This document shows, in pieces, positions 46,120 to 64,000 of a stretch of DNA of 64,000 nt. The notes beneath the pieces were generated by a model. It ran no database searches. It worked only from the letters and a program-made list of their open reading frames with translations, and was not told the DNA's origin. The translations under genes and the position numbers were made by a program. Position 1 is the first letter of the stretch. Every line of letters starts with the position of its first letter. The stretch comes from a virus (Duplodnaviria; Caudoviricetes). The stretch is taken from positions 96,001-160,000 of the IMG/VR virus record IMGVR_UViG_3300014205_000177; one strand, given 5' to 3'.

Positions 46120-49100
46120 TTAATTCCAGAATCCCCCAGCTAATGATTGAGGTTTGTTAATGTTTTCTAAATAATTATATGCTAAATCATGCCCTATTAA
46201 CACAGCACTATATCTATCTTTTCTTTGTTTTTTCTGTGGAGTGTCCCAATGCATCCTTCCAGAACCAGGTGTTAAGGTCACAACAATGTTTTGTATTTCA
46301 TTCATTGTTTCTAATATTTGTTTATACATTAGTTCATCTTCAGTGCTTTCTTCATCATGACAATTTGTTAATAATCCTTTTTCACATGGGAATAATAAAG
46401 TACCATTTTGTAAAGAAAGTAATAAATTATGATTTGCATTGTGAACCCATTCATATCTTGAAAATTCTACTAATTCAAGCATTCTATTGCCTTTCATAAA
46501 TCTATGTTCTTCAAATCCCCTTTGTAGAATAGGAGTTTCTCCAACAGACAATGTTTTGGAATCTGCCAATAAGTCTCTTATAGTTTGACCCCCTCCTCCT
46601 GAATCCATTGCAAATTCAGTTATATTATATTCTTTTATAAGATTTCTTATTTCTCTATGCATAACAGGATATGGTTGTTTATTATAGGCTAAAACTCTTT
46701 TAAGTTTTATTAGTCTTTTTGCTATATCAATTGTAAATATGGCAATTGCAAAATTATCACCATTACGAGCTGGGTCTATACCCATTACATTTACAAAACC
46801 TGATTGTTTAGCAAGTGATTTTTCACATGAAAATGAATAATGTAACTGTGATTTATCGAGAAGTGAACGTTGAAAGAAACCATCTGAGTCAGCAGGAAAA
46901 TAATTTTCATATTCCATTCTAAATTGATAGTCTGGCATATTTAACTTTGCTTCATCAATAGAACTTCTGTTCATAAATCCTTCTGGATAATCATTATGTG
47001 TAAATGCTACTAAAGCCCTGTTATTATCTTTCATTATATTATAAGGTATTTGAGGACCAGATTCATTACCTCTTAATTCTATACCTTGTAAATCTTCTGG
47101 TATTTCTTGATTATTATTAAATAATTTAATATATCTATCTTGTTTTTCCATAATTGAATCAATATAACTCTTAACAGAAACCCAAAAATGATTATATTGA
47201 TAATAAGAAGTAGAAGAAAGAACTATTTTATTACTATATAATTTTTCTATTTTATTAATTTTACCTAAAGCTAAAAGTTTCTTTTGTTCTTCTATAAATC
47301 TTACTTGTTCCATTGGGTTTTTAGAAGTTGCCATCATACCACGAATAACTACATCTAAAACTTCCTTATTTACCTGAGCTACTTCGTCTACAATAACAGT
47401 AAAAAAACGAGCACCACGAATTGTTCCCCCGTCACCTATAGGTAACGCTTGAATAACAGAGCCTGGTTTATTGCATACTGATTTAAATTGGAGATAGCAC
47501 ATATCTGTCATTTTAGTAGGTTTCTTTTCACAACAATCTCTTAAAAGAAGAGATGTTTCATATATTCTTTCTATTTCAGAAAAAACAAATTTTGACTGAC
47601 GAAAAGATGCACCAAATATACCAACTTTTTCGCCAGGAAATAGTAATGCTCTTAAAATTGCAAATACAGCATCAATAAAAGTATTGTGAGATATAAATCC
47701 ATTGGATATAAAAGTATGGTCGTCTGGAATATGAACATCGTAAGTATGCTCTTCTGGAAGAATTTCTTTCTCTACAACAATATCAAAAAAGTAATTTTTT
47801 TCTGATATATCTTTTAACTTTTTCCAATTTTCGCTATCACTGCAATCCTTAGTTAACTCTAAAAATTCATTTAAAAATCTATAAGATGGATTGTATTCTA
47901 ATAGGTGAGTATTCTGCAATAACGTTCTTGATTTTCTATCTAGTTTATATTCCACCTTGTTTTTTAAGTAATCATTTTTCACAGAAATAAGAATATCCGA
48001 TAGGAAAGGAATCACATCCTTATTGGGATTGAATTTTTTATTCAGCAATAACGTCTCAAGTTTGTCTTGTTTCCTATTACATTTAAATCCTATCTTTTCT
48101 GCAAAAATTTTTGCTGAATTTGAATATATAAACAATCTCCATGAATCTCTTCTTGATTCAATTCCTTTGTAAATATATTTTACCGACTTATAATGGATAG
48201 AAGAAATAATTCCAAAAGATAAAAGAACCACCTGAAGTTGTTTTAATAGTTTTTCAGAACATGATGAAAACTCAACCCCTCTATCAGTAACACTTCCATC
48301 GGTATCTGCATATCCAGAAATAAATGATGCCAATACTTTTTTATTTGATTGTAGTATTGACTCTGGTATTTCTTTTTCTTTTGATTTTACTTTTTTAAGC
48401 TTGTATTTACTAAAGAATTCTTTATCTCTATAAGCTCCTCCGAAATTCAAACTAAATTCTATTTTATCCTTTAGTTCTGAAAACTTACAAGCTCCTAGTT
48501 TTTTATAATTTTCTCTGAAAATATTTATTATGTCTTCATCTGTATTGGTAAATCCAACCCCTCCGGATTTTACAAAGCATCCATCGCCAATTAATGCTCC
48601 AATCATATATCCTTCTATTTCTGATATCCAGTTAAATTCTCCGCTGAATTCATACTTATCATCCCTATTAATGACTACATAATCTCCAATTTTTATATCA
48701 TCATTTCTTTTCCATGTAATATTTCCATTTTCAAAACATCTAATCATGTGCTTGTCTACTGATTTTATTTCGTAGCCGTGACAAGTTCTTGTTCTGTAAA
48801 TTTGTTTTGGTTCGTTTTTGTATGTGTGCGATGTATTTTTGAATCCGTTTTCTCCATACATTTGGATTACACTCTCTTTAAGTCCAAACTCTTCTGATTT
48901 GTGAAGTCCTGCTATTTCATGGAATCCACTATTGAGAAGACACATAGAGTCTCCAACTATGCATTTACCAGAACCACGGGACAAAACCATAATCACATTA
49001 TTACAGTCCCACATTGCTCTAAGTGCAATTCTTTGATGTGGAGCAAGGTCAATACCAAGTAAATCCCTTGCTGCTGCTGCTGGGTCTTCTTTATAAATTC

Positions 49101-49149
49101 TTACCATCTCCATTAATTGAATATCGTCTTCTGCAAAATTCTGTATCAT
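46120..49149 (-). CDS. terL: Terminase large subunit, intein-containing
   Basis: Walker A RGSGK|T split by an intein; IRGARF, VIVDE Walker B, GIDPAR, DSGGGG and KDRYSA nuclease motifs. Confidence 0.95.
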   Translation of the reverse strand: MIQNFAEDDIQLMEMVRIYKEDPAAAARDLLGIDLAPHQRIALRAMWDCNNVIMVLSRGSGKCIVGDSMCLLNSGFHEIAGLHKSEEFGLKESVIQMYGENGFKNTSHTYKNEPKQIYRTRTCHGYEIKSVDKHMIRCFENGNITWKRNDDIKIGDYVVINRDDKYEFSGEFNWISEIEGYMIGALIGDGCFVKSGGVGFTNTDEDIINIFRENYKKLGACKFSELKDKIEFSLNFGGAYRDKEFFSKYKLKKVKSKEKEIPESILQSNKKVLASFISGYADTDGSVTDRGVEFSSCSEKLLKQLQVVLLSFGIISSIHYKSVKYIYKGIESRRDSWRLFIYSNSAKIFAEKIGFKCNRKQDKLETLLLNKKFNPNKDVIPFLSDILISVKNDYLKNKVEYKLDRKSRTLLQNTHLLEYNPSYRFLNEFLELTKDCSDSENWKKLKDISEKNYFFDIVVEKEILPEEHTYDVHIPDDHTFISNGFISHNTFIDAVFAILRALLFPGEKVGIFGASFRQSKFVFSEIERIYETSLLLRDCCEKKPTKMTDMCYLQFKSVCNKPGSVIQALPIGDGGTIRGARFFTVIVDEVAQVNKEVLDVVIRGMMATSKNPMEQVRFIEEQKKLLALGKINKIEKLYSNKIVLSSTSYYQYNHFWVSVKSYIDSIMEKQDRYIKLFNNNQEIPEDLQGIELRGNESGPQIPYNIMKDNNRALVAFTHNDYPEGFMNRSSIDEAKLNMPDYQFRMEYENYFPADSDGFFQRSLLDKSQLHYSFSCEKSLAKQSGFVNVMGIDPARNGDNFAIAIFTIDIAKRLIKLKRVLAYNKQPYPVMHREIRNLIKEYNITEFAMDSGGGGQTIRDLLADSKTLSVGETPILQRGFEEHRFMKGNRMLELVEFSRYEWVHNANHNLLLSLQNGTLLFPCEKGLLTNCHDEESTEDELMYKQILETMNEIQNIVVTLTPGSGRMHWDTPQKKQRKDRYSAVLIGHDLAYNYLENINKPQSLAGGFWN
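47683..48963 (-). mobile_element. Intein (427 aa) with LAGLIDADG homing endonuclease
   Basis: Begins C-IVGDS, ends TYDVHI..HTFISNGFISHN followed by Thr; IGALIGDG and ISGYADTDG motifs. Confidence 0.95.
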
Positions 49150-54101: not shown

Positions 54102-54668
54102 TTAGAATTTTTTATCAGTCTTAATTCTTTTCCTCATTCTATTAAGTATCGCACTTACAGCTGACGGGTAACTATAGTTTAATTTTTCTGATATTTCTCT
54201 TTGGGTTATTTTGGGATTTTCGAATATCAATTTTAATACATTTTTTTCGTTTTCTTTTAAATAACATTCTGGTGAATTATCATCAATCATTAGTCTTAAA
54301 TTTTTTATTCTTTCTTCATCAAAACTCTTTTTTTCTGATTCTTCACAATTAGAATCTATAAAAGGGAAATCTTTCATGAATAAATCTTCTCCAGAAAAAA
54401 CATATGATTTATATTTTTGATATTTTATGCAGTTATGTTGTACAAGATTTGATATACAACGGAAGGCAAATACTGAAAATTTAACACCTTTTGATGGGTC
54501 ATATTTTGGAATTATTTTTTCTATAACGAAAAGACACGAATTTTGAAATATATCTTCTTTTTCTTCTTTTGGGATATTGTTATATCTGTGAATTATTGAC
54601 CAAATCATTGGTTCAATACTTTTTAACATCAATTCATTTTTTTTATCAACTACCTTCTCTTTCTCCAT
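54102..54668 (-). CDS. Phage RNA polymerase sigma factor (sigma-70 family)
   Basis: Region 2 KEDIFQ..KYDPSKGVKFSVFAFRCI; region 4 LKENEKNVL..TQREISEKLNYS; start moved to ATG 54668. Confidence 0.9.
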   Translation of the reverse strand: MEKEKVVDKKNELMLKSIEPMIWSIIHRYNNIPKEEKEDIFQNSCLFVIEKIIPKYDPSKGVKFSVFAFRCISNLVQHNCIKYQKYKSYVFSGEDLFMKDFPFIDSNCEESEKKSFDEERIKNLRLMIDDNSPECYLKENEKNVLKLIFENPKITQREISEKLNYSYPSAVSAILNRMRKRIKTDKKF

Positions 54669-54852
54669 TTTCAACTCCACTTCCTGTCGTAAAGACAATT
54701 TTTAATTCTATTGTTTGAAAGGAAGTAGAATCTTGATTAGATTGTGTTCCAACACATCCCATATATTGAATTAAGCTTTCTTTGTTTATACTGTTAAGTA
54801 TTTCTAAAATAGAGCTAAATGGTACTATATTACCATCAACTATGTTTACCAT
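54646..54852 (-). CDS. Hypothetical protein (68 aa, MVNIVDG...)
   Basis: ATG 54852 with SD GAGGAGG. Confidence 0.6.
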   Translation of the reverse strand: MVNIVDGNIVPFSSILEILNSINKESLIQYMGCVGTQSNQDSTSFQTIELKIVFTTGSGVENGEREGS

Positions 54853-55012
54853 TCTCAACCTCCTCTTTAATGCTTGCAAGGGTTCTTTGAAATTCTTTCT
54901 TCTCCTTGCTTCCGCATTTTGGACAAATGTTGGAGTCTGTATAAATATTTTTACATTTTATACATGTGAATGTTTTTTTATAAATTTTACCAGTAGTCTT
55001 TTGATATTCCAT
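54836..55012 (-). CDS. Small Zn-ribbon protein (58 aa, MEYQKTTGKIYKKTFTCIKC..CPKCGS)
   Basis: Hand-translated, below the ORF-track cutoff; CxxC..CPxCG; SD GAGG. Confidence 0.7.
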   Translation of the reverse strand: MEYQKTTGKIYKKTFTCIKCKNIYTDSNICPKCGSKEKKEFQRTLASIKEEVENGKHS

Positions 55013-55013
55013 T

Positions 55014-55235
55014 TTAACCTCTTGTTGACCTTAAAATTAGGTCTAAATCTTTTATCCCTATTACAAATCTAACATCAATTCCAGGGATTGTTAACAATAA
55101 TGAATCTGTAGAAATTTCGGTAGGATATGTACCATCTGCAAAAATATTATTGTCTTCTGCTTTTGATAATTCTAGTTCAGTATTTTGACAATTTCCATTC
55201 TCTATTGCAACACACTTAATATTAAATCTTACCAT
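55014..55235 (-). CDS. Hypothetical protein
   Basis: 73 aa, SD AGGAG, downstream of a promoter. Confidence 0.65.
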   Translation of the reverse strand: MVRFNIKCVAIENGNCQNTELELSKAEDNNIFADGTYPTEISTDSLLLTIPGIDVRFVIGIKDLDLILRSTRG

Positions 55236-55258
55236 AAAATCTCCTTGTTATAAAACAT

Positions 55259-55286
55259 ATTATAGCATAAATAAATAATATTTCAA
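55259..55286 (-). promoter_or_regulatory. Host sigma-70-type promoter driving the phage sigma operon
   Basis: TTGAAA-N16 (ending TGC)-TATAAT. Confidence 0.7.
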
Positions 55287-55496
55287 TTTTTTTAAATAAA
55301 ATACTTGACATTTTTATTGAACATGCTTCACTTTTATTTTTAAGGATAAACTTTAAACATTTTGTTTTATAAATCTATACAACAATGTTATAATCAAATT
55401 TTAACTACATAGAACGAACGCTATTTAATTTTTTGTTAAGATATGACTCTTTGCCCATTATTGTTGTTTTGGTGGTCTTATTTTTCTTTTATTTGA

Positions 55497-55830
55497 TTCT
55501 AGTTAATACTTTACTAGTTTATTTATCTAGTAATTATATTTACCAGTATAAATTACTTACTAGTATAATCTTCTAGTATACTTTCTTTATTGGACTATGC
55601 TATTTAGTGCGTGTATGTGATTATACTAGATAAGTATACCGCACATTACACGTTATTACTAACTAGTTAATTAATTATACTAGTTAATACACAAACTAAT
55701 ATAGTATTCACGTTAATACGTTACTAGTAATTCTCTGATGTATTAAACTAGTAAAGTATTCACGCACACACGCACGATTATAATAATATATTAATTAATT
55801 ACTAGTATTCACGTATGTGCGCACGTAAGG
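55497..55830. repeat. CTAG/ACTAGT-rich repeat region at the strand switch, candidate replication origin
   Basis: 11 CTAG copies in 55499-55805 and three AGTATTCACG (55703, 55755, 55804); non-coding. Confidence 0.6.
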
Positions 55831-55892
55831 ATAATTAATAAAAAAACTAAAACATTAATTTTAAAAAAAATTGAAAAAAAATAAAACTTTGT

Positions 55893-55920
55893 TTGTTTTT
55901 ATTTGGTTTTATGCTATAAT
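55893..55920 (+). promoter_or_regulatory. Promoter of tRNA array 1
   Basis: TTGTTT-N16 (ending TGC)-TATAAT. Confidence 0.7.
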
Positions 55921-55963
55921 ATAAAACAGAAACAAAAATAATTTAAAAATGGTGATATTAAAA

Positions 55964-56041
55964 ATGAGAACAATGCAAGATATGACAGTGGCGACAGCCA
56001 ATACCAATCCGGAGAATTCTCCAGTGTGGTACGTCTCTTAG
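55964..56041 (+). CDS. Leader peptide 1 (MRTMQDMTVATANTNPENSPVWYVS), putative attenuator of tRNA array 1
   Basis: SD GGTGA at 55951; first 18 codons all specify amino acids of array-1 tRNAs; 3' end overlaps the antiterminator strand. Confidence 0.8.
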   Translation: MRTMQDMTVATANTNPENSPVWYVS

Positions 56042-56100
56042 TCTTTGTTTTTATTTGTAAATAATGATTTAAGAGCGAACCCTAAAAAGTTCGCTTTTTT
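56032..56100 (+). terminator. Attenuator 1: antiterminator (56032-56077) overlapping intrinsic terminator (56071-56100)
   Basis: AGCGAAC-loop-GTTCGCT-TTTTT; CGTCTCTTAGTC pairs with GATTTAAGAGCG. Confidence 0.8.
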
Positions 56101-56128
56101 GTTGATTGAAAACTTAATATAATAAAAT

Positions 56129-56221
56129 GCTAGTGTGGCTGAGTGGTCTAAAGCAGCGCACCTGTAATGCGCCGAGTTCATATCAATGGCTCCGTGGGTT
56201 CAAATCCTACCACTAGCTCCA
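56129..56221 (+). tRNA. tRNA-Thr(TGT), long variable arm, C33
   Basis: GCTAGTG/CACTAGC acceptor, GCGCA-CCTGTAA-TGCGC, TTCAAAT T-loop, CCA. Confidence 0.75.
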
Positions 56222-56301
56222 GTCTTCCGGCTTCGTAAAAACGAATATAATAACATAGCAATATGTGAAGCGGATATTCCCAGCCGGTTTTATTTTAGAA
56301 T

Positions 56302-56379
56302 GGGGCAATAGCTCAGTTGGCTTAGAGCATCTCGCTTGCACCGAGAAGGTCCAGGGTTCAATTCCCTGTTGTTCCACCA
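56302..56379 (+). tRNA. tRNA-Ala(TGC)
   Basis: TCTCG-CTTGCAC-CGAGA, G3:U70, CCA. Confidence 0.95.
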
Positions 56380-56387
56380 TTTTACGT

Positions 56388-56465
56388 TGGCTAGTAGCTC
56401 AGTTGGTAGTAAGCGTTCGCCTGTTAAGCGAAAGGTCGCACGTTCGAACCGTGCCTAGCCAGCCA
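56388..56465 (+). tRNA. tRNA-Asn(GTT)
   Basis: TTCGC-CTGTTAA-GCGAA, CCA. Confidence 0.95.
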
Positions 56466-56513
56466 ATTTTATTAACAATGTGTGTTAATATTATTCTAGT
56501 TTAAAATAATTTT

Positions 56514-56599
56514 TGCAGGGATAAGTCTCGGAAGACTGGTAAGGCTCATAACCTTATGCGGAAACGCTGAGTGGGTTCGACTCTCCACCCCTGCTACCA
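56514..56599 (+). tRNA. tRNA-Met(CAT), initiator-like, atypical body
   Basis: U1xU72 mismatch, GCAGGG/CCCTGC, TAAGG-CTCATAA-CCTTA, GCG-GAAA-CGC variable arm, CCA. Confidence 0.75.
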
Positions 56600-56667
56600 T
56601 TTCTCTACCAGAGGTAGGGATATTATAAAGGGTTATCGCTGTCCCCGTCTGACGAAACAGCGAACGT

Positions 56668-56743
56668 GGCTCGTATGGATAATGGCTATCCACAAGTATC
56701 ATAAACTTGTTTAAGGTGGGTTCGATTCCCCCACGAGCTACCA
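56668..56743 (+). tRNA. tRNA-Met(CAT), elongator (Ile2 not excluded)
   Basis: CAAGT-ATCATAA-ACTTG, bulged T-stem, CCA. Confidence 0.8.
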
Positions 56744-56752
56744 ATTTAAAAC

Positions 56753-56828
56753 GGGGATGTAGCTCAATTAGGAGAGCATCGGTCTGTCGAACCGAAGGTC
56801 GTGGGGGCAGAACCCATCATCCTCGCCA
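56753..56828 (+). tRNA. tRNA-Asp(GTC)
   Basis: TCGGT-CTGTCGA-ACCGA, G73, T-loop GGCAGAA, CCA. Confidence 0.9.
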
Positions 56829-56836
56829 TTTTATAT

Positions 56837-56913
56837 GCTCGGTTAGCTCAATTGGCTAGAGCACTTGGTTTACACCCAAGTTGTTACAGATTCGAGTTCT
56901 GTACCGAGTACCA
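56837..56913 (+). tRNA. tRNA-Val(TAC)
   Basis: CTTGG-TTTACAC-CCAAG, CCA. Confidence 0.95.
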
Positions 56914-56922
56914 GTTTTATAT

Positions 56923-57012
56923 GGGGAGGTAGCTCAGAGGCAGAGCGTCGGGCTAGGTGGTGAAAACCACCGAATCTGAAGGTCGCTGGTTCGAATCCAG
57001 CCTTCCCCACCA
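56923..57012 (+). ncRNA. tRNA-like RNA with the anticodon loop replaced by a GAAA hairpin
   Basis: Canonical acceptor, D and T arms and CCA; anticodon region is CTA-GGTGGT-GAAA-ACCACC-GAA. Confidence 0.8.
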
Positions 57013-57018
57013 GTTTCG

Positions 57019-57091
57019 TTGCGAGATAATATAATTTTTAGTACCCCATTGTGGATGGGAAATGTTGGTGAAAATCCAACTCTCGCAACCA
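57019..57091 (+). tRNA. tRNA-His(GTG), degenerate
   Basis: CCCA-TTGTGGA-TGGG; 8-bp acceptor with U-1:A73; weak D arm; T-loop TGAAAAT; CCA. Confidence 0.7.
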
Positions 57092-57116
57092 TTTTTTAAA
57101 AAAATAGAAAAGTAAT

Positions 57117-57144
57117 TTGTTTTTGAAGTAAATTATGCTATATT
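57117..57144 (+). promoter_or_regulatory. Internal promoter in tRNA array 1
   Basis: TTGTTT-N16 (ending TGC)-TATATT. Confidence 0.6.
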
Positions 57145-57235
57145 TTAAAGTATAAGAAAGTTGTTGGATAATTACCAACTGAACTCTGAGGTTATGGGAA
57201 TATCAGAGAGAGATTAACAAATAACCCGTACATAT

Positions 57236-57309
57236 CAGAGCGTGAGATAATGGTAGTCGTCCTTCCTTGGAAGAAGGGGGTGGTCGTTCGAATCGACCCG
57301 CTCTGACCA
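57236..57309 (+). tRNA. tRNA-Pro(TGG)
   Basis: CCTTC-CTTGGAA-GAAGG, C1:G72, A73, CCA. Confidence 0.9.
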
Positions 57310-57359
57310 TTTTAAATTTAACCATAGTGGTTTAAATAAAAAATAACATAGGAAAAGTT

Positions 57360-57566
57360 ATGGAAGAAGATTTAATTCCTGAAATTTGGGAAAACGGAAA
57401 GGGGAGAACAAAACCCTTTGTAAAAAGTAAGAAAAACAATTATGAAGAACCCAAAAAAAGATTTGGGATAATTGGTAAGAAAAAAGTAAAAGAAAATAGA
57501 GAACTTCAAGATATAGATGAAGTAGAAGATAAAATAAGTTCTTCTATACTTAGTAAAATTAAATAA
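57360..57566 (+). CDS. Hypothetical protein within the tRNA array
   Basis: 68 aa, SD AGGA. Confidence 0.55.
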   Translation: MEEDLIPEIWENGKGRTKPFVKSKKNNYEEPKKRFGIIGKKKVKENRELQDIDEVEDKISSSILSKIK

Positions 57567-57571
57567 TATGT

Positions 57572-57647
57572 GTCCGGTTCTTCTAGTTGGACAGGATAAG
57601 GGACCTTCACTCCCTCGACACGGGTTCGAATCCCGTACCGGATACCA
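57572..57647 (+). tRNA. tRNA-Glu(TTC), C33
   Basis: AGGGA-CCTTCAC-TCCCT, CCA. Confidence 0.9.
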
Positions 57648-57650
57648 TAA

Positions 57651-57726
57651 AGCCCTGAAGTGTAACGGCTGCACACTTGTCTTTGACACAAGTAGACTTA
57701 TGGTTCAACTCCATGCAGGGCTGCCA
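57651..57726 (+). tRNA. tRNA-Gln(TTG)
   Basis: CTTGT-CTTTGAC-ACAAG, G73, CCA. Confidence 0.9.
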
Positions 57727-57734
57727 GTTTTCGA

Positions 57735-57809
57735 GTTCCCTTAATTCAGAGGAAGAAATTATCGGTCCTAACGATAAAGTCGCTGGTTCAAGTCCAGCAG
57801 GGAACGCCA
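57735..57809 (+). tRNA. tRNA-Arg(CCT)
   Basis: TATCG-GTCCTAA-CGATA, A20 in D-loop, CCA. Confidence 0.9.
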
Positions 57810-57823
57810 GTTTTGTTTTATGT

Positions 57824-57907
57824 GTGCCAGTAGCTGAGAGGATAGAGCAGTGGTTTAAATTAAATATTTAAGATTGACGTGTGTTCGATTCAATGTTTCG
57901 ATGGTAT
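57824..57907 (+). pseudogene. Degenerate tRNA (Arg-like 5' half)
   Basis: GTGCCAGTAGCTGAGAGGATAGAGCA and GTTCGATTC remain; anticodon arm, T-stem and CCA are decayed. Confidence 0.55.
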
Positions 57908-57927
57908 TATATAAAAAGGAGTTTTAT

Positions 57928-58906
57928 ATGAAAGCCATTGAAATAGATTGGAAATTAGTTCAGGAATACCATAATAATGAGCACTGCTTGAGTGATGTCA
58001 TGAAAAATTTTAAGGTTTCAAGAGCATCCATAGATACAGCGGTAAAACATGGATGCTTTGTTAAAAAATATTTTAAACAAGAACACACTGAGGAAACAAA
58101 GAAGGCAATATCTGAAAAAAGGAAAAAATGGTTGGCAGACAATCCAGATAAACATGTATGGAAAAGGAAGGGAAAATTCAAATCTGAACCATGCGAAGTA
58201 TTAAAGAAAAAAACTTGAAGAAAATGGAGTTAGTTTTTATCCAGAATTTTCACCAATAGAAAGCCATTCATTCTCTTTAGATATAGCTTTTCCAAAAGAT
58301 AAGTTTGGCATAGAAATAAATGGAAACCAGCACTATGAAAGAGACGGTAGACTAAAGGATTATTATCAGAAACGACATGATTTAATCGTTGCAGATGGTT
58401 GGGAACTATTGGAAATACCTTGTGCTATGGTTTGGAACAAGGAGTTTATTGATGGTTTAATAGAATCACTTAAAACTAAGGTCTGCGGTTTTGAGTATAA
58501 AGAACAAGTGGAAGAATATAATAAAAAGAAAAGAGAAAAGTATATTTGCCCGACTTGTGACAATAGAAAGAGCAAAAACTCGATGCTTTGTAGAAAGTGT
58601 TCTTTTAAGCCGAAAGTAAAAAAGCAAGTAGTCAGAATTTTTGTAAATAAAAACCATATGTGTCCGAATTGTAAAAACGCTAAAGATGCAAAAGCGGTTT
58701 TATGTAAGGAATGCTTTAGTTTGTCAAAGAGGAAAGTTGAAAGACCAAATAAGGAAGAGTTGGAAAAATTGGTCAAAGAGTTATCGATGACTAAGATAGG
58801 CAAGATGTTCGGAGTTAGCGACAATGCCGTAAAAAAATGGTGTAAAATTTATGAAATAGAATTAGGAGACAGACGAGGGTACTGGGCAAAGATTTATGCA
58901 AGGTGA
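57928..58906 (+). pseudogene. Free-standing homing-type endonuclease (Vsr/DUF559-like PD-(D/E)XK domain, Zn ribbons, HTH) split by a +1 frameshift at A7 (58207-58213)
   Basis: ATG 57928 with SD AAGGAG; NUMOD3-like HTEETKKAIS; +1 frame continues KLEENG..SLDIAFP..GIEINGNQHY..GWELLEIP into ORF 58409-58906. Confidence 0.8.
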
Positions 58907-58914
58907 TTTAACAT

Positions 58915-58989
58915 GGTCTCATAGCTTAACGGATAAAGTTCGTGTCTTCTAAACACGCCATTCGGGTTCAATTCCCGATGAGACCTCCA
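58915..58989 (+). tRNA. tRNA-Arg(TCT)
   Basis: CGTGT-CTTCTAA-ACACG, CCA. Confidence 0.95.
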
Positions 58990-59010
58990 ATTTTAAAAAA
59001 GGAATTTTTT

Positions 59011-59268
59011 ATGAAAAGAGCTAGACCTATTTACTCACTAGGGCAGTATTATAGAAACAGGGGCACTCATAAACGAGAAGAAGCAATAAGCGAAGACGAA
59101 GAACATAGTCCATTAACTAGAGCCAAGAGAGAATCAAATTTACCTGACTCTTGGGATACAAAAAAGATTTGCAGACCTAAGACATGGAAGAGGAGATGCA
59201 AGAAAGCAAAACAGTGGATGAAACATTTTATGACAGATTTAGAAAAGAAATTTATAAGAGGAGAATAA
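59011..59268 (+). CDS. Small basic hypothetical protein (LPDSWD..KTWK..KQW)
   Basis: Start moved to ATG 59011 (SD AAGGA) because the track start lies inside tRNA-Arg. Confidence 0.65.
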   Translation: MKRARPIYSLGQYYRNRGTHKREEAISEDEEHSPLTRAKRESNLPDSWDTKKICRPKTWKRRCKKAKQWMKHFMTDLEKKFIRGE

Positions 59269-59271
59269 ACG

Positions 59272-59376
59272 ATGAGTGGAAAAGGATGTAAGAGAAGACC
59301 TCAACAGATAAGCGAAGAAAAAATGCAAAGCAATTGGGAAAAAGCATTTAACAAAGGAAATAAAAAGAAAAAATGA
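59272..59376 (+). CDS. Small phage protein (34 aa, MSGKGCKRRPQQISEEKMQSNWEKAF...)
   Basis: SD AGGAG; stop overlaps the next ATG; GKGxxRRP..NWxxxF pattern. Confidence 0.6.
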   Translation: MSGKGCKRRPQQISEEKMQSNWEKAFNKGNKKKK

Positions 59377-59960
59377 GTGAAGTATTGGTTTTAAACAAGC
59401 TATGGCAACCAGTTAAAGTTATTAACGTATGGGATGCAATTTGCAAAGTATATCAAGATAAAGCTTCTTTTTTAGATGCTAATTATGTTATGCATAATTG
59501 GGAATCTTGGGTTATATCATGGAAAGATGCAGAAATTCATGCAAAAGATATGATACATGGTTCATCTTGTTCTATTAGAAAACCAACTGTAATTGTTTTA
59601 AAAAACTACAGTGGGTATGTTTTTAAAAAACCAAAGATGAGTAGGCGTAACATTTACTTAAGGGATGCAAACCAGTGCCAATATTGTGGTATAACATACG
59701 AAACAAAGAAACTAAATATAGACCATATTATACCTAAATCTCATGGGGGAAGAACTCAATGGACTAATGTAGTAGTTTCATGTATAAAATGTAATAGTTT
59801 TAAAGCAGATAGAACTCCTGAACAGGCAGGAATGAAACTTTTAAGAAAGCCAAAAGCTCCTACCTGGAAAGATGTTAACATGGAAGCTTTTCAAAGAAAT
59901 TATTCTAATTGGCACGGTCTGTTAAATGACATGTACTGGAATGTTACTTTAGAAAAATAG
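59373..59960 (+). CDS. HNH endonuclease (McrA-like)
   Basis: VLVLN..SRRNIYLRDANQCQYCG..NIDHIIPKSHGG..WTNVVVSCIKCN..K.DRTPEQAGM. Confidence 0.9.
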   Translation: MSEVLVLNKLWQPVKVINVWDAICKVYQDKASFLDANYVMHNWESWVISWKDAEIHAKDMIHGSSCSIRKPTVIVLKNYSGYVFKKPKMSRRNIYLRDANQCQYCGITYETKKLNIDHIIPKSHGGRTQWTNVVVSCIKCNSFKADRTPEQAGMKLLRKPKAPTWKDVNMEAFQRNYSNWHGLLNDMYWNVTLEK

Positions 59961-59970
59961 AATTATAAGA

Positions 59971-59998
59971 TTGACAAATAAAAAAAAGATGCTATACT
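59971..59998 (+). promoter_or_regulatory. Sigma-70-type promoter
   Basis: TTGACA-N16 (ending TGC)-TATACT. Confidence 0.75.
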
Positions 59999-60039
59999 TA
60001 ATAAGTGTAGCATTTTTTATATATAAATAAGGAGATAAA

Positions 60040-60426
60040 ATGAGTGAAAAAATTGTAATGGGTAAAATGTTTTCTATTGAAAATAAAAACAAAAAAACCG
60101 GTGAAAATGAAAAATACATAGCCGTTTATGTAGAAGACGAAAGCGGAAATGAAGAAACCGAAAGGTGCTTACTATTTACGGAAATAGAGCTTTCCGACAT
60201 GGAAAAAGTTGTACTTCCATTTGTTAAGAATACAATGAAAAAAGGAAGAATTTATTCTGTTATTATAGACAAAAAAGAAACAAATCTTTTAAAAGTAGAA
60301 ACAGAACGTAATGGAAATATTATTTTTAGGGTTTCTAATTCTCAACTTAAATCGGCAGAAGAAAGGGTTAAAAGAAATCCAGAAGATGTTGAAAAGAAAG
60401 ATTTTATAACTGATTTACTTGACTAA
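60040..60426 (+). CDS. Hypothetical protein
   Basis: 128 aa, SD AAGGAG. Confidence 0.7.
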   Translation: MSEKIVMGKMFSIENKNKKTGENEKYIAVYVEDESGNEETERCLLFTEIELSDMEKVVLPFVKNTMKKGRIYSVIIDKKETNLLKVETERNGNIIFRVSNSQLKSAEERVKRNPEDVEKKDFITDLLD

Positions 60427-60435
60427 CAAGGAAAT

Positions 60436-60669
60436 ATGATGAAATTAAAAATAAAATGTCCAGAATGTAAAAGGGAACATCTTGTCACTATATCAAATGA
60501 ACAACCTATTATGGAAATTAAAAAGATAAAATGTTTATCTTGTAGTATAATTATAAAATATAGAATAGGAATAAAAAAAGAAAATACCAGTGATAGTTCT
60601 TCTAAACTTTTTGATAGTATGGGAATGTTTGGAGATGTTTTTAAAAATATTATGGGGAGTAAAAGATGA
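60436..60669 (+). CDS. Zn-ribbon protein
   Basis: CPEC..CLSC. Confidence 0.65.
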   Translation: MMKLKIKCPECKREHLVTISNEQPIMEIKKIKCLSCSIIIKYRIGIKKENTSDSSSKLFDSMGMFGDVFKNIMGSKR

Positions 60670-60992
60670 TAGGTACAATAGAAGTGGTAAATAAATATAC
60701 ATATGAAGGTGATTATATAGATATAATGAGAGGAACTCCACTTGGTAATCCATATATAGTTTCTGATTCAATGAGCAGAGAACAATCAGTTTTAAATTTT
60801 TATAAATATTTCAGAAAAGAATTTTTTAAAAAAACAGATGTATATAATGCAATAATGGAGATAGTTGAAAAGGTTAAGTCTGGAGAAAATGTAAAAATTA
60901 AATGTTGTTGTAAACCAAAATTATGCCATGGCGATATTATAAAAATTGCAATAGAAAGTATTTTAGAAAAACAAATTAGAAATAATACTTGA
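60666..60992 (+). CDS. DUF4326-like protein
   Basis: I.RGTPLGNPY..R...V..F..Y..CCCKPKLCHGDII motif. Confidence 0.8.
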   Translation: MIGTIEVVNKYTYEGDYIDIMRGTPLGNPYIVSDSMSREQSVLNFYKYFRKEFFKKTDVYNAIMEIVEKVKSGENVKIKCCCKPKLCHGDIIKIAIESILEKQIRNNT

Positions 60993-61016
60993 TTTTTAAA
61001 AATATTATGCTATAGT
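60989..61016 (+). promoter_or_regulatory. Promoter of the PTH2-like operon
   Basis: TTGATT-N16 (ending TGC)-TATAGT. Confidence 0.65.
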
Positions 61017-61066
61017 TAATATTATAAAATTTCTTATTATGAGAAATTAAAAAAAAGAGGTAAAAA

Positions 61067-61141
61067 ATGATGTAGAATAATAAATCTCCATAACGTGTTT
61101 CTTTGTTTTAATGATTTTAATAATAATAATAAACAAAGGAG
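61067..61141 (+). promoter_or_regulatory. Mini-leader ATG ATG TAG (read-through MM*NNKSP*) plus SD-sequestering hairpin
   Basis: SD GAGG at 61057; TTTCTTTGTTT (61098-61108) pairs with AAACAAAGGAG (61131-61141). Confidence 0.55.
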
Positions 61142-61147
61142 AGTATA

Positions 61148-61522
61148 ATGAATACTTTAAGAAACACGAACGAAGAAGTAATAGATTTGAAGAAAGAGGA
61201 ATATAAGAAGAATATTAAAAGGATGAAGGCTAACGTTAAACTGGTGTCAAATAACATAAAAGAAATGAAAGAAGAATTAAAGACTAAGCAAAAAAAAGGT
61301 GATTATAAAAGTTGGTCTTTAATGAGTGATTTAAATTCTTATAAAAATGATGTCAGAAATACACATATAGCTTATGCTATGGCAAAAGGGAGAGTCTACC
61401 AAAAAATTGAGTCAAAAGTTAGAGATAACAATGAACCAAACTGGTGGGCAATAAAGGCAAATATAGAAAATTTCTTCGGAAAGAAATTTGAAATTGTTGA
61501 CTTCAAGGTAAACTTTCTATGA
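61148..61522 (+). CDS. Hypothetical protein (R..HIAY.M.KGR.Y..IE motif)
   Basis: 124 aa, SD AAGGAG; coupled to the next gene by ATGA overlap. Confidence 0.7.
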   Translation: MNTLRNTNEEVIDLKKEEYKKNIKRMKANVKLVSNNIKEMKEELKTKQKKGDYKSWSLMSDLNSYKNDVRNTHIAYAMAKGRVYQKIESKVRDNNEPNWWAIKANIENFFGKKFEIVDFKVNFL

Positions 61523-61821
61523 AAAAGGTATTTATAATAACCAGGAAAGACCTTGAAAATGGAGCAAGAATAGTTCAGTCTGTTCATTCATTCCATGAGT
61601 TGGCAAGAAAAAATGAAGAAATATTGAATCAGGTATATAATACAATATGTTACAAAATAGAAGACGAACTATCATTAAAAGAAGTTTCTGAGAGGATAGC
61701 AAGTAATCTAAACGAAAAAGAATATGCATGGTTCAGAGAAACAGATTACAATAATCAATTGACCTCTTTTGCAGTCTTTACAAACAAGAAAGAGCTGTTT
61801 AAAGGTTTAAGATTGGCGTAA
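61519..61821 (+). CDS. Peptidyl-tRNA hydrolase type 2 (PTH2)-like protein
   Basis: KVFIITRKDL..G..IVQSVHS..FRETD...QLTS..LFKGLRL resembles the PTH2 fold signature. Confidence 0.7.
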   Translation: MKKVFIITRKDLENGARIVQSVHSFHELARKNEEILNQVYNTICYKIEDELSLKEVSERIASNLNEKEYAWFRETDYNNQLTSFAVFTNKKELFKGLRLA

Positions 61822-61827
61822 TAAATA

Positions 61828-61855
61828 GGGAGGAGTAAATCCTCCCATTATTTTA
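61828..61855 (+). terminator. Probable terminator hairpin
   Basis: GGGAGGA-GTAAA-TCCTCCC followed by ATTATTTT. Confidence 0.55.
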
Positions 61856-61871
61856 TAAAAAATGGAGAAAA

Positions 61872-62342
61872 ATGAGCAATAAAGAAAATTATTTTTTAGA
61901 CCTAGCACTTAGAAGTGCTCATCAAGGTTCCTGTACAAGAAGAAACTACGGAGCAATTATAGTAAACGAGAAAAAGCATATAGTAGCAACTGGTTATACA
62001 GGAAATGTATCAGGAGAAGAGCACTGTAATAGTCTTGGAATTTGCTGGAGAAAAGAGAATAATATTCCAAGTGGAACCTCCTACGAACGCTGTAAATCAA
62101 TACATGCCGAACAGAATGCGTTAATTCAAGCCGGTAAAGAATCTTATGGTTCTGTAATATATATTGCCGGATATGATGTAGAAACAGGAAGGGAAATAGC
62201 TGGTATACCTTGCTTTATTTGTGCAAAACTAATTGTTAATGCTGGAATATCTTCTATTATATATAGAGATACATCTTTAGTGTTCAGGAAGGGTCCAGTT
62301 GCCCATTATCGTGAACTAGAAAGAAAAATATTTGGAAAATAA
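61872..62342 (+). CDS. dCMP/cytidine deaminase family protein
   Basis: SCTRRNYGAIIV..ATGY.G..HAEQNA..PCFIC. Confidence 0.9.
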   Translation: MSNKENYFLDLALRSAHQGSCTRRNYGAIIVNEKKHIVATGYTGNVSGEEHCNSLGICWRKENNIPSGTSYERCKSIHAEQNALIQAGKESYGSVIYIAGYDVETGREIAGIPCFICAKLIVNAGISSIIYRDTSLVFRKGPVAHYRELERKIFGK

Positions 62343-62354
62343 TAGTTTATGGTG

Positions 62355-62382
62355 TTGTTTTTTTATAAAGTAATGCTATAAT
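62355..62382 (+). promoter_or_regulatory. Promoter of tRNA array 2
   Basis: TTGTTT-N16 (ending TGC)-TATAAT. Confidence 0.7.
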
Positions 62383-62522
62383 ATAATCAACAGCCACCGA
62401 TATAGAAATATACGGTAATGTATAGCTCATCTGCCAGGTGTAGAGTGAGTTTCCGAGAATGACGATGACAAAATTCAAAGTTGTTCTCCGTTTTTAAAAA
62501 AAAATAAAAGGAATTATATTAA

Positions 62523-62594
62523 ATGATGAACGTTTTTAAAAAGATTAGTTTTGGTCGTTGGGGTTTTAAACCTCACGTCCGTCTATTCTTGTAA
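62523..62594 (+). CDS. Leader peptide 2 (MMNVFKKISFGRWGFKPHVRLFL), putative attenuator of tRNA array 2
   Basis: SD AAAGGA at 62507; codons 4-13 include a codon for each of the 8 downstream tRNAs; 3' end overlaps the antiterminator strand. Confidence 0.85.
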   Translation: MMNVFKKISFGRWGFKPHVRLFL

Positions 62595-62654
62595 CGTTTA
62601 TCGTTAGTTGTTGGAGAAGTAGGCGGACTAGAAATAGTTCGCCTTTTTGTTTTT
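62577..62654 (+). terminator. Attenuator 2: antiterminator (62577-62628) overlapping intrinsic terminator (62621-62654)
   Basis: AGGCGGACTA-GAAA-TAGTTCGCCT-TTTTGTTTTT; GTCCGTCTA pairs with TAGGCGGAC and TTCTT with GAGAA. Confidence 0.85.
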
Positions 62655-62656
62655 AT

Positions 62657-62732
62657 GGGTTGATAGCAAACGTGGTCAATGCATACCGTTGAAGCCGGTA
62701 CTACTTCGGTTCAATTCCGAATCAACCCACCA
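62657..62732 (+). tRNA. tRNA-Phe(GAA)
   Basis: TACCG-TTGAAGC-CGGTA, CCA. Confidence 0.9.
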
Positions 62733-62742
62733 GTTTATGTGA

Positions 62743-62833
62743 GCAAGGTTGTCTTAGCGGCTTGAGAAACCGACTTTTAATCGGTCAGAGGGTAATGCCT
62801 CGTAGGTGGGTTCGACTCCCACACCTTGCACCA
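62743..62833 (+). tRNA. tRNA-Lys(TTT), long variable arm
   Basis: ACCGA-CTTTTAA-TCGGT; GAGG..CCTC variable stem; CCA. Confidence 0.85.
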
Positions 62834-62844
62834 TTTTATAGTAT

Positions 62845-62929
62845 GCGTCGATGTCATAGCGGTTGTGAGGCTGACTCTTAATCAGTGAGAGAAATCTCTA
62901 GGTGGGTTCAACTCCCACTCGGCGCACCA
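62845..62929 (+). tRNA. tRNA-Lys(CTT), long variable arm
   Basis: GCTGA-CTCTTAA-TCAGT; GAGA-GAAA-TCTC variable stem; CCA. Confidence 0.85.
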
Positions 62930-62941
62930 AGTTTTTTGTGT

Positions 62942-63015
62942 ATGTCTATAGTTCAATAGTAGAACGGGAGTCTCCAAAACTCTTGACGAGGGGGCAGTAC
63001 CTTCTAGACATGCCA
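62942..63015 (+). tRNA. tRNA-Trp(CCA)
   Basis: GGAGT-CTCCAAA-ACTCT, G73, T-loop GGCAGTA, CCA. Confidence 0.9.
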
Positions 63016-63024
63016 GTTTTATAT

Positions 63025-63100
63025 GCGCTGTTAGCTCAGTTGGAAGAGCCCAAAAATACGAATTTTGAGGTCGGGGATTCGAATTCTCCACGGCGCACCA
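63025..63100 (+). tRNA. tRNA-Arg(ACG)
   Basis: CAAAA-ATACGAA-TTTTG, CCA. Confidence 0.9.
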
Positions 63101-63107
63101 TTTTCAT

Positions 63108-63183
63108 TGGCGTATCATATAACGGTCAATTATGTGAGACTGATATTCTCATCACCAAGGTTCAACTCCTTGTACGCCAACCA
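63108..63183 (+). tRNA. tRNA-Ile(GAT)
   Basis: TGAGA-CTGATAT-TCTCA, CCA. Confidence 0.9.
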
Positions 63184-63192
63184 GTTATACAT

Positions 63193-63268
63193 ATTCGGTT
63201 AGTTTAGCGGCTAGAACAATACGTTGACATCGTATAAATCATGGGTTCGATTCCCATACCGAATACCA
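63193..63268 (+). tRNA. tRNA-Val(GAC)
   Basis: ATACG-TTGACAT-CGTAT, CCA. Confidence 0.95.
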
Positions 63269-63276
63269 GTTTTCAT

Positions 63277-63350
63277 GCGAATATAGTACAGTAGCAGTAT
63301 TTGACGTTGCCAACGTTAGGACGAGGGTGCAATTCCCTCTATTCGCACCA
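63277..63350 (+). tRNA. tRNA-Gly(GCC)
   Basis: TGACG-TTGCCAA-CGTTA, A73, CCA. Confidence 0.9.
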
Positions 63351-63380
63351 TTTTTTGCAACGAAAAATATAATCTTTATG

Positions 63381-63408
63381 TTGCAAAACCAAGATATTGT
63401 GCTATACT
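63381..63408 (+). promoter_or_regulatory. Promoter of the tRNA-like ncRNA
   Basis: TTGCAA-N16 (ending TGC)-TATACT. Confidence 0.7.
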
Positions 63409-63414
63409 ATCAAT

Positions 63415-63538
63415 GGCGGTTTAGAGAAAGGTTCATCGCCCTCTAACAAGGGAGGGATTGCAGTAGATTCACCGTGGAAGAAAAGTACATCAGTGAAGGA
63501 ACCAATCCAATGTTTTTTCGATAAAACAATCGCCACCA
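63415..63538 (+). ncRNA. 124-nt RNA with tRNA-like acceptor stem, T-like arm and CCA end
   Basis: GGCGGTT/AATCGCC-A-CCA; TGTTT..TTCGAT..AAACA arm; internal stems TAGAG/CTCTA, GGATTG/CAATCC, TTCAC/GTGAA. Confidence 0.65.
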
Positions 63539-63539
63539 T

Positions 63540-63567
63540 TTGACATTTATAAAAATCATGCTATTGT
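63540..63567 (+). promoter_or_regulatory. Sigma-70-type promoter
   Basis: TTGACA-N16 (ending TGC)-TATTGT. Confidence 0.65.
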
Positions 63568-63596
63568 ACCTCAACAAACTAAAAAGGAGATATGCA

Positions 63597-63995
63597 ATGT
63601 GTATCAAAATCAAGGCGATGGAAAATGGAGTAATGATTCAAAGCAGAGAAGAATATGAAGATATAATGGATATTCTATTGGATGCAGGTCTTCGGACAGT
63701 GAGTGGAAAATATTTTGGAGAATGTGACTGGTTTAATGAAACCGGAACCGAAACAGTTATAGATTTGAGAAATCTGGAGTCTATTGCATATGGTGAATAT
63801 CAGTATTTTATTGATAATGATATCCCGGTTTGTAATTTCCAGGATTTTCTTACAGAACAGGGTTTAACACCAAACGGATGCATTAGCGGTGAACAACAGA
63901 TATTTATGCGTAGGGCAAAGTTGAAATGTCCAAAAATGAAAAAGAAAGAAATCAGAAGACTTGCAAAGGCAATCGTGAGGGAGATGAACAAATGA
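63597..63995 (+). CDS. Hypothetical protein
   Basis: Start moved to ATG 63597 (SD AAGGAG). Confidence 0.65.
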   Translation: MCIKIKAMENGVMIQSREEYEDIMDILLDAGLRTVSGKYFGECDWFNETGTETVIDLRNLESIAYGEYQYFIDNDIPVCNFQDFLTEQGLTPNGCISGEQQIFMRRAKLKCPKMKKKEIRRLAKAIVREMNK

Positions 63996-64000
63996 AAGCA

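Follow-up and report, generated by a model that had tools for sequence, protein, structure and literature searches.

The window analysed here is a 64,000-nt stretch (G000:C2:96001-160000) of contig C2, which is 177.8 kb long, has 30% G+C and carries a 123-bp terminal overlap; it therefore represents a complete phage genome, either circular or terminally redundant. C2 encodes a major head protein and an intein-carrying terminase, together with about 35 tRNA genes, nearly all of them located within C2:152,000-164,000. Because the closest deposited phage terminases, which belong to Bacillus phages, are less than 30% identical to that of C2, we place this phage in an uncultured lineage, and an identification as a crAss-like phage was dropped on the same grounds. 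The bin that contains C2 is a Melioribacteraceae genome according to the names in its rpoB cluster, which is only a weak pointer to Melioribacteraceae as a possible host; there is no cultured host. Some other features of this genome deserve mention. The terminase large subunit (window 46120-49149, minus strand) is 1009 aa long and its intein has a LAGLIDADG domain (Pfam), and the terminases of several relatives are 576-584 aa long and have no intein. The structural-gene block includes a single 5587-aa ORF (window 17032-33795, minus strand) and a 2449-aa ORF (3535-10884).

The tRNA region is preceded in the window by a divergent operon, the first gene of which (54102-54698, minus strand) encodes a sigma-70-like factor with a region 2 and a region-4-like helix-turn-helix; homologues lie at the equivalent place in L107, L109 and L154. 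The divergent intergenic spacer (window 55072-55890) is dense in ACTAGT/TACTAGT and CACGCAC-type short repeats. The L154 spacer is likewise repeat-rich, with many ACTAGT-type repeats, and that of L107 is rich in short repeats. This repeat-packed spacer is possibly an origin or a regulatory array.

Beyond the spacer lies unit 1, in which a promoter motif is followed, in this order, by a Shine-Dalgarno-like site, a short ORF, an intrinsic terminator and tRNA array 1. Its features are the following:

55893-55920, plus strand: promoter-like site P1, with TTGTTT, a 16-nt spacer and a TG-extended TATAAT (-10 at 55915-55920); no transcript start has been mapped.
55951-55955, plus strand: Shine-Dalgarno-like GGTGA, 8 nt 5' of the L1 ATG.
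55964-56041, plus strand: leader ORF L1, with its ATG at 55964, 25 sense codons and a TAG stop at 56039-56041; its translation is inferred.
55967-56026, plus strand: stall-sensitive ('sensing') zone, codons 2-21 of L1, as delimited by ribosome-masked partition-function folds.
56027-56042, plus strand: antiterminator strand (segment 2), covering the last five L1 codons and the stop; best partner of the terminator 5' strand.
56069-56104, plus strand: intrinsic terminator, with the 5' strand and its flank at 56069-56080, a loop, the 3' strand at 56089-56098 and a T tract.
56129-57088, plus strand: proximal part of array 1, with Thr-TGT, Ala-TGC, Asn-GTT, Met, Met, Asp-GTC, Val-TAC, an odd tRNA-like gene and His-GTG.
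57117-57144, plus strand: internal promoter-like site P2, with the same motif as P1; neither a leader ORF nor a terminator lies downstream.
57236-58989, plus strand: distal part of array 1, with Pro-TGG, Glu-TTC, Gln-TTG, Arg-CCT and Arg-TCT, interspersed with small ORFs.

These parts and their order are read directly from the DNA; the start of transcription at P1 and the translation of L1 are inferences. On the plus strand of C2 the promoter motif (ATGCTATA[AT]T) has only five copies, all of them in the tRNA region, and three of these head leader-terminator-array units. Promoter-like sites are also found at the equivalent place in the related genome G001 and in locus L158. Promoters of the TTGTTT-N16-TATAAT type could be read either by the phage sigma-70-like factor or by a host sigma factor. 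As regards translation, a Shine-Dalgarno-like motif lies 7-11 nt upstream of the ATG in all nine leaders that we examined here and in related phages (125 of the 166 long ORFs of the phage have one). The terminator hairpin of L1 (56071-56098, -10 kcal/mol) begins 29-31 nt past the stop codon, too far for a ribosome terminating at this stop to block the hairpin by itself; only about 30 nt separate the terminator from the first tRNA. An initial annotation, made without database searches, had given the L1 sequence, its start, its stop and its 25 codons, and all of this held. Its list of the tRNAs in array 1 also held, except that one tRNA-like gene (56923-57012) was missing from it, while its antiterminator strand, placed at 56032-56043, held only in part and is now put at about 56027-56042. 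Between the T tract of the terminator and the first tRNA there is also a TTGAAAA box (window 56106-56112), kept in all five L1-type units (window, G001, L107, L108 and L109) despite diverged flanks; that it could be a processing signal is merely a guess.

Most of the genes in array 1 were called by ARAGORN, with Met 56515-56594, Asp 56753-56825 and His 57020-57088 added by Rfam and by reading of the anticodon loop. The extra tRNA-like gene at 56923-57012 matches the Rfam tRNA model at 54.6 bits. Its anticodon loop contains an inserted 15-nt hairpin, and the anticodon is not assigned unambiguously, ARAGORN giving either 'ag' or Arg-ACG with an intron. The internal promoter motif that the initial annotation had reported near 57117 is present, and the stretch from it to tRNA-Pro (window 57117-57235) contains a 7-codon ORF and a small hairpin but no terminator. 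The caveat raised there stands: P2 could possibly express the Pro, Glu, Gln and Arg tRNAs independently of L1. Several tRNAs of this phage are unusual in themselves. Long extra arms, which are normally limited to Ser, Leu and Tyr tRNAs, are present in tRNA-Thr(TGT) (56129-56221), tRNA-Lys(TTT) (62743-62833) and tRNA-Lys(CTT) (62845-62929); tRNA-Thr(TGT) in addition has C at position 33, and in the relatives the tRNAs for Ala, Asn, Arg, Ile and Pro include similarly oversized ones. Beyond the window, C2:162252-162528 may be a tRNA-Leu(TAA) whose anticodon loop is interrupted by about 190 nt (ARAGORN intron mode), and no Rfam group I intron matched there at E<=0.1.

The codons of L1 correspond to the tRNAs encoded behind it. 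As had been claimed, 21 of its 25 codons match array 1 by amino acid, codons 1-18 match without exception, and the four misses (Ser19, Trp22, Tyr23 and Ser25) are all among the last seven codons; each of these claims held. Without the start codon the count is 20 of 24. So did the claim that GCC, ACC and GTC need extended wobble, and under strict wobble 17 of the 24 codons are read by array-1 tRNAs. The sensing codons 2-21 include Thr (four times), Asn (three times), Met, Ala, Val, Pro, Arg-AGA, Gln, Asp and Glu, with most array-1 tRNAs being sampled by one to four scattered codons and not by runs. The array-1 tRNAs without a codon in L1 are His-GTG, Arg-CCT and the odd tRNA at 56923, and the earlier caveat that L1 has neither His nor AGG codons also stands. 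Since the eleven array-1 amino acids account for 48.7% of the codons in the long ORFs of the phage, the probability of 17 matches in a row is about 5e-6, and that of at least 20 matches in 24 codons is 5e-4. Among the 737 ORFs of the contig that start with ATG and have 20-35 codons, none attains the match fraction of L1 and the longest initial matching run is 8; this list carries L1 itself in a 30-codon form, which starts at an alternative in-frame ATG (55949) that has no Shine-Dalgarno-like site. Furthermore, rare G-ending codons make up 4 of the 10 codons that L1 uses from the Thr, Ala, Val and Pro boxes, versus 4.9% genome-wide (P = 0.001). In the E. coli leu leader, rare codons increase sensitivity.

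The same arrangement is repeated twice more in this phage:

62373-62656, plus strand: unit 2, with the promoter motif at 62373, leader L2 at 62523-62594, a terminator at 62621-62644 and array 2 from 62657.
C2:160688-160884, just past the window end: unit 3, with leader L3 and array 3.

In all three units a Shine-Dalgarno-like site precedes an ORF of 23-25 codons, the terminator lies 19-31 nt past the stop and the array begins 5-32 nt further on. The leaders end differently, L1 in TAG and both L2 and L3 in TAA. Each leader matches its own array: with strict wobble, L1 has 17, 2 and 2 codons read by arrays 1, 2 and 3, respectively, L2 has 3, 15 and 4, and L3 has 3, 3 and 15. In total, 47 of the 69 leader codons match their own array, versus 21.4 +/- 3.7 when codons are permuted among leaders (strict wobble, full tRNA inventory), and none of 300,000 permutations reaches 47. 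The correspondence extends to isoacceptors, with AGA in unit 1 going with Arg-TCT, ATT and GGT in unit 2 with Ile-GAT and Gly-GCC, CGT in unit 2 with Arg-ACG, and ATA and GGA in unit 3 with Ile-TAT and Gly-TCC. Both the match between codons and array and its specificity are thus properties of the sequence itself; that units 2 and 3 are leader attenuators of the same design as L1 is a likely inference from it.

Leader units were also found in four related phage contigs. G001, an IMG/VR genome of 175.4 kb whose terminase is 64% identical, has three units, in which 50 of 80 leader codons match their own array (29.6 +/- 4.1 expected). The ENA contig behind L109 and L158 has three as well, and for L158 the figure is 40 of 72 (19.8 +/- 3.6 expected); neither value was reached in 200,000 permutations. 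In L107 and L108 the first unit was seen, and it encodes a different peptide with the same composition. L110, L111, L154, L156 and L157 were left out, as they lack synteny or end short of the leader. Across the nine units the leaders have 23-33 codons, the stop is 19-31 nt before the terminator and the terminator is 5-66 nt before the first tRNA.

What is conserved among the L1-type leaders (window, L109, G001, L107 and L108) is composition: with the exception of the window and L109 they are mostly unalignable, and all the peptides have a high content of Thr, Asn, Asp, Gln, Ala, Pro, Arg and Glu. Between the window and L109, the Shine-Dalgarno-like site and the terminator hairpin with its T tract are identical. 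The start and stop contexts are identical as well, and the sole indel in the leaders is of 6 nt and in frame; these contexts and this indel argue that the L1 frame is read. In the sensing zone of L109, six of the seven substituted or inserted residues (R, T, P, Q, N and D, but not I) fall within the array set, and several of the replacements are chemically radical, a pattern that would be expected if the codon class, and not the peptide sequence, were under selection. Leaders and arrays also change together. Cys-GCA and Ile-TAT belong here to array 3, with TGC and ATA in L3, and in G001 to array B, with TGC and ATA in leader B. Gln-CTG is absent from our phage, where L1 has only CAA, and is present in L109, L108 and G001, where the leaders carry CAG; overall, Gln-CTG pairs with a leader CAG in three of the four phages possessing that tRNA.

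Wider searches were not productive. A DNA search of deposited phages with window 54700-58000 returned generic tRNA similarity only, and a promoter-pattern scan of viral contigs gave chance matches (14 loci were checked for tRNAs, with no related array among them). The protein encoded beside array 2 (61872-62342) has no relatives in viral contigs. The conserved terminator-tail pattern recovered only G001 from viral contigs and no relative from metagenome contigs, and a terminase profile search of metagenome and genome contigs found nothing. Four other tRNA arrays that we inspected had no promoter-leader-terminator unit.

The position of a pairing that competes with the terminator can also be read from the sequence. 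In L1, the antiterminator strand 56027-56042 pairs with 56069-56080 at -8.5 kcal/mol, the best duplex that the terminator 5' strand can form in the whole leader transcript, although this energy is also reached by 5.5% of shuffles. This position is conserved: in eight of the nine units no more than 4 nt separate the best complement of the terminator 5' strand from the end of the ORF. The transcript up to the terminator loop was then folded with a 30-nt ribosome footprint at every codon, using the partition function, and the predicted probability (P) that the terminator 5' strand is sequestered upstream was as follows:

Ribosome A site on L1 codons 1-21: P = 0.63-0.87, except at codon 19, where it is 0.49.
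Ribosome A site on L1 codons 22 to stop: P = 0.12-0.33.
No ribosome on L1: P = 0.41.

Folding under ribosome constraints had been suggested in the initial annotation as a check; now run, it makes L1 switch between codons 21 and 22, and every other unit switches too. Of the three switches in this phage, L1 is predicted to be the weakest, and it is energetically modest. In the absence of a ribosome, the probability of antiterminator pairing ranges among the units from 0.10 to 0.90, and in the minimum-energy fold of the L1 leader the antiterminator segment is paired with upstream codons; since the ribosome-free fold is intermediate in L1 and variable among units, a trp-style 1:2 protector hairpin is not established.

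The matching codons are placed where a stalled ribosome would matter. In the six units with full tRNA lists, 77 of 100 codons inside the stall-sensitive zone match the array, versus 20 of 49 outside it (Fisher P = 2e-5). In L1 alone, with strict wobble, 17 of the 19 non-start codons at P>=0.6 match, and none of the five outside, including the borderline codon 19. We attribute the clustering of the L1 misses at its end to this organization, because the end codons cannot sense and their sequence is constrained by the pairing.

We consider it likely, as an inference from sequence alone, that array 1 is gated by ribosome-mediated transcription attenuation, with L1 as the leader, and that this attenuator senses the supply of the tRNAs encoded in the array. 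In this scenario, transcription would start at P1, and a ribosome would load at GGTGA and translate the 25-codon L1 while RNA polymerase advances, with codons 2-21 sampling the tRNAs of array 1. When decoding is fast, the ribosome would arrive at the last codons or the stop and cover 56027-56042, the hairpin 56071-56098 would form and transcription would stop before tRNA-Thr. When a cognate charged tRNA is scarce, the ribosome would stall in the sensing zone, leaving 56027-56042 free to pair with the emerging 5' strand of the terminator, and the polymerase would read into array 1. The new tRNAs would then relieve the stall, closing a negative feedback loop. The coupling of ribosome and polymerase, and the direction and size of the response, are inferred here. 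The biological trigger is equally inferred, candidates being host tRNA depletion during infection and tRNA-cleaving defences. A caveat is that stalling would report amino-acid starvation too, which additional tRNA cannot cure.

This design is close to that of the enterobacterial multivalent attenuators (thrL, ilvL of ilvGMEDA and ivbL; also trpL, hisL, leuL and pheL), with which the L1 unit shares a promoter, a short translated leader (in L1, putatively so) with control codons, mutually exclusive antiterminator and terminator structures, and the masking of the antiterminator strand by a ribosome at the stop; as in the multivalent ones, one leader would sense several amino acids, and rare codons may add sensitivity. 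The reading of L1 as a leader-peptide attenuator, proposed initially, is supported: every prediction that can be tested at the sequence level is met, the one attenuator feature not established being the protector hairpin, and the function remains an inference. In spite of these similarities, there are important differences: (i) the enterobacterial attenuators control biosynthetic enzymes, whereas the L1 unit is viral and its genes encode tRNAs; (ii) in L1 about ten tRNA species are sampled by scattered codons, where the enterobacterial leaders have runs; (iii) the product of the L1 unit, tRNA, would act directly on the step being sensed, which would make the unit a tRNA-supply homeostat, unlike the enterobacterial attenuators; and (iv) the 1:2 protector hairpin of the latter is not established here.

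Other known systems resemble the L1 unit in part. The pheST attenuator of E. coli, with its pheM leader peptide, controls a component of the translation apparatus via the decoding of matching codons. However, it governs an aminoacyl-tRNA synthetase operon, responds to one amino acid and is cellular, while the L1 unit would control tRNA genes, would be multivalent and is viral. T-box riboswitches also tune the supply of charged tRNA by a choice between terminator and antiterminator in a leader RNA, but they act without a ribosome, through direct binding of uncharged tRNA, and their targets are synthetase or amino-acid genes. The L1 unit is not a T-box, a class marked by a specifier loop, a T-box sequence and a conserved stem I fold: neither a T-box nor any other Rfam cis-regulator was found in window 54500-64000 at E<=1. 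There is precedent for the sensing principle in the use of the his leader as an in vivo gauge of the reading speed of single codons (PMC4046918), an engineered laboratory tool built on an amino-acid operon and not a natural control of tRNA genes. A Phe-rich leader in front of E. coli pheV and pheU was considered as a precedent and dropped: in K-12 there are about 105 nt upstream of each gene without an annotated leader gene, and the upstream sequence of pheV contains neither a Phe-rich leader ORF nor a terminator. No report of leader-peptide attenuation of tRNA genes appeared in the literature searched. What would be new is the class of target, tRNA genes; leader-peptide attenuation as a mechanism is known.

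Of the alternative explanations, the one that survives best, though we regard it as unlikely, accepts that the leader is translated and codon-matched and supposes that it senses overall translation capacity, timing or amber readthrough in place of the scarcity of single tRNAs. In the amber version, a phage suppressor tRNA would read the TAG, the ribosome would continue across the terminator and the array would be opened late in infection. In its favour, the phage has a tRNA with a CTA anticodon (amber suppressor-type; C2:18254-18329, outside the window), L1 ends in TAG with the next in-frame stop (56120-56122) beyond the terminator, and TAG ends four of the nine leaders but only 17 of the 166 long ORFs. 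Against it, L2 and L3 end in TAA, and the extension is not conserved: in unit C of G001 a TGA comes directly after the TAG, and the L109 extension ends ahead of the hairpin. No genome-wide recoding of TAG was found in the phage. As for a sensor of general capacity, array-specific codons would be unnecessary.

A second alternative is that the hairpin is a constitutive terminator or insulator and the ORF incidental, with the array being expressed from its own start at the TATAAT at 56118-56123 or by unregulated leak-through. This bare TATAAT, reported in the initial annotation as a caveat that still stands, is present and is a perfect match ending 5 nt before the first base of tRNA-Thr, and a 5/6 version lies at the equivalent place in L109; in addition, in the unrelated 222-kb phage contig L089, one of the four other arrays inspected, a promoter and a hairpin precede the tRNA array and there is no ORF, showing that a hairpin can exist before a tRNA array without a leader peptide. 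However, the TATAAT lacks a TG extension and has no -35 at the 16-18 nt that would make a workable spacing, and three of the four relatives (G001, L107 and L108) do not have it. The gap between terminator and tRNA is only 5-32 nt in eight of the nine units, too short to leave room for a separate promoter. This explanation also does not account for the array-specific codon match in three units of each of three phages, for the way in which matching codons concentrate where a stall matters, for the location of the antiterminator at the end of the ORF or for the conserved Shine-Dalgarno-like sites. We judge it very unlikely, while not excluding that the TATAAT is a weak bypass promoter with a start near the first base of tRNA-Thr.

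Finally, that L1 is a small functional peptide, or its terminated leader RNA a trans-acting small RNA, with the neighbouring tRNAs unrelated, is also very unlikely: the unit does have its own promoter, ribosome-binding site and terminator, and the by-products of an attenuator can have trans activity, rnTrpL being an example (PMC6614838), but among relatives only composition and not peptide sequence is kept, three unrelated peptides each match their own array, and a trans function, which could exist additionally, would not explain the codon match.

Returning to the attenuator reading, a bolder version of it would take the leaders as the tRNA-supply homeostat of the phage, which would switch an array on only when the codons read by that array are decoded slowly, for instance upon degradation of host tRNAs or cuts by anticodon nucleases, with leader and array co-evolving as one module. 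We offer this version tentatively, since the balance tips slightly against it at present.

How the many tRNA genes of phages are regulated is largely unknown, and why phages carry them at all is currently debated, the proposals being codon usage, decay of host tRNAs and evasion of defences that cleave tRNAs. If a leader is composed of the codons of its own array, this would mean that expression is driven by demand, the signal being slow decoding of those same codons, and, if this is true, textbook attenuation would be extended to a new class of target genes. The combination of a short ORF, a terminator, a tRNA array and a codon-match score is a marker readable in sequence for the mining of phage genomes, and the leaders would provide synthetic biology with small natural sensors that report how available particular tRNAs are. 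Should the homeostat reading prove true, this would be the first leader-peptide attenuation acting on tRNA genes, and it would represent a general viral way to sense and repair damage to the translation apparatus, one that may exist in other tRNA-rich phages.
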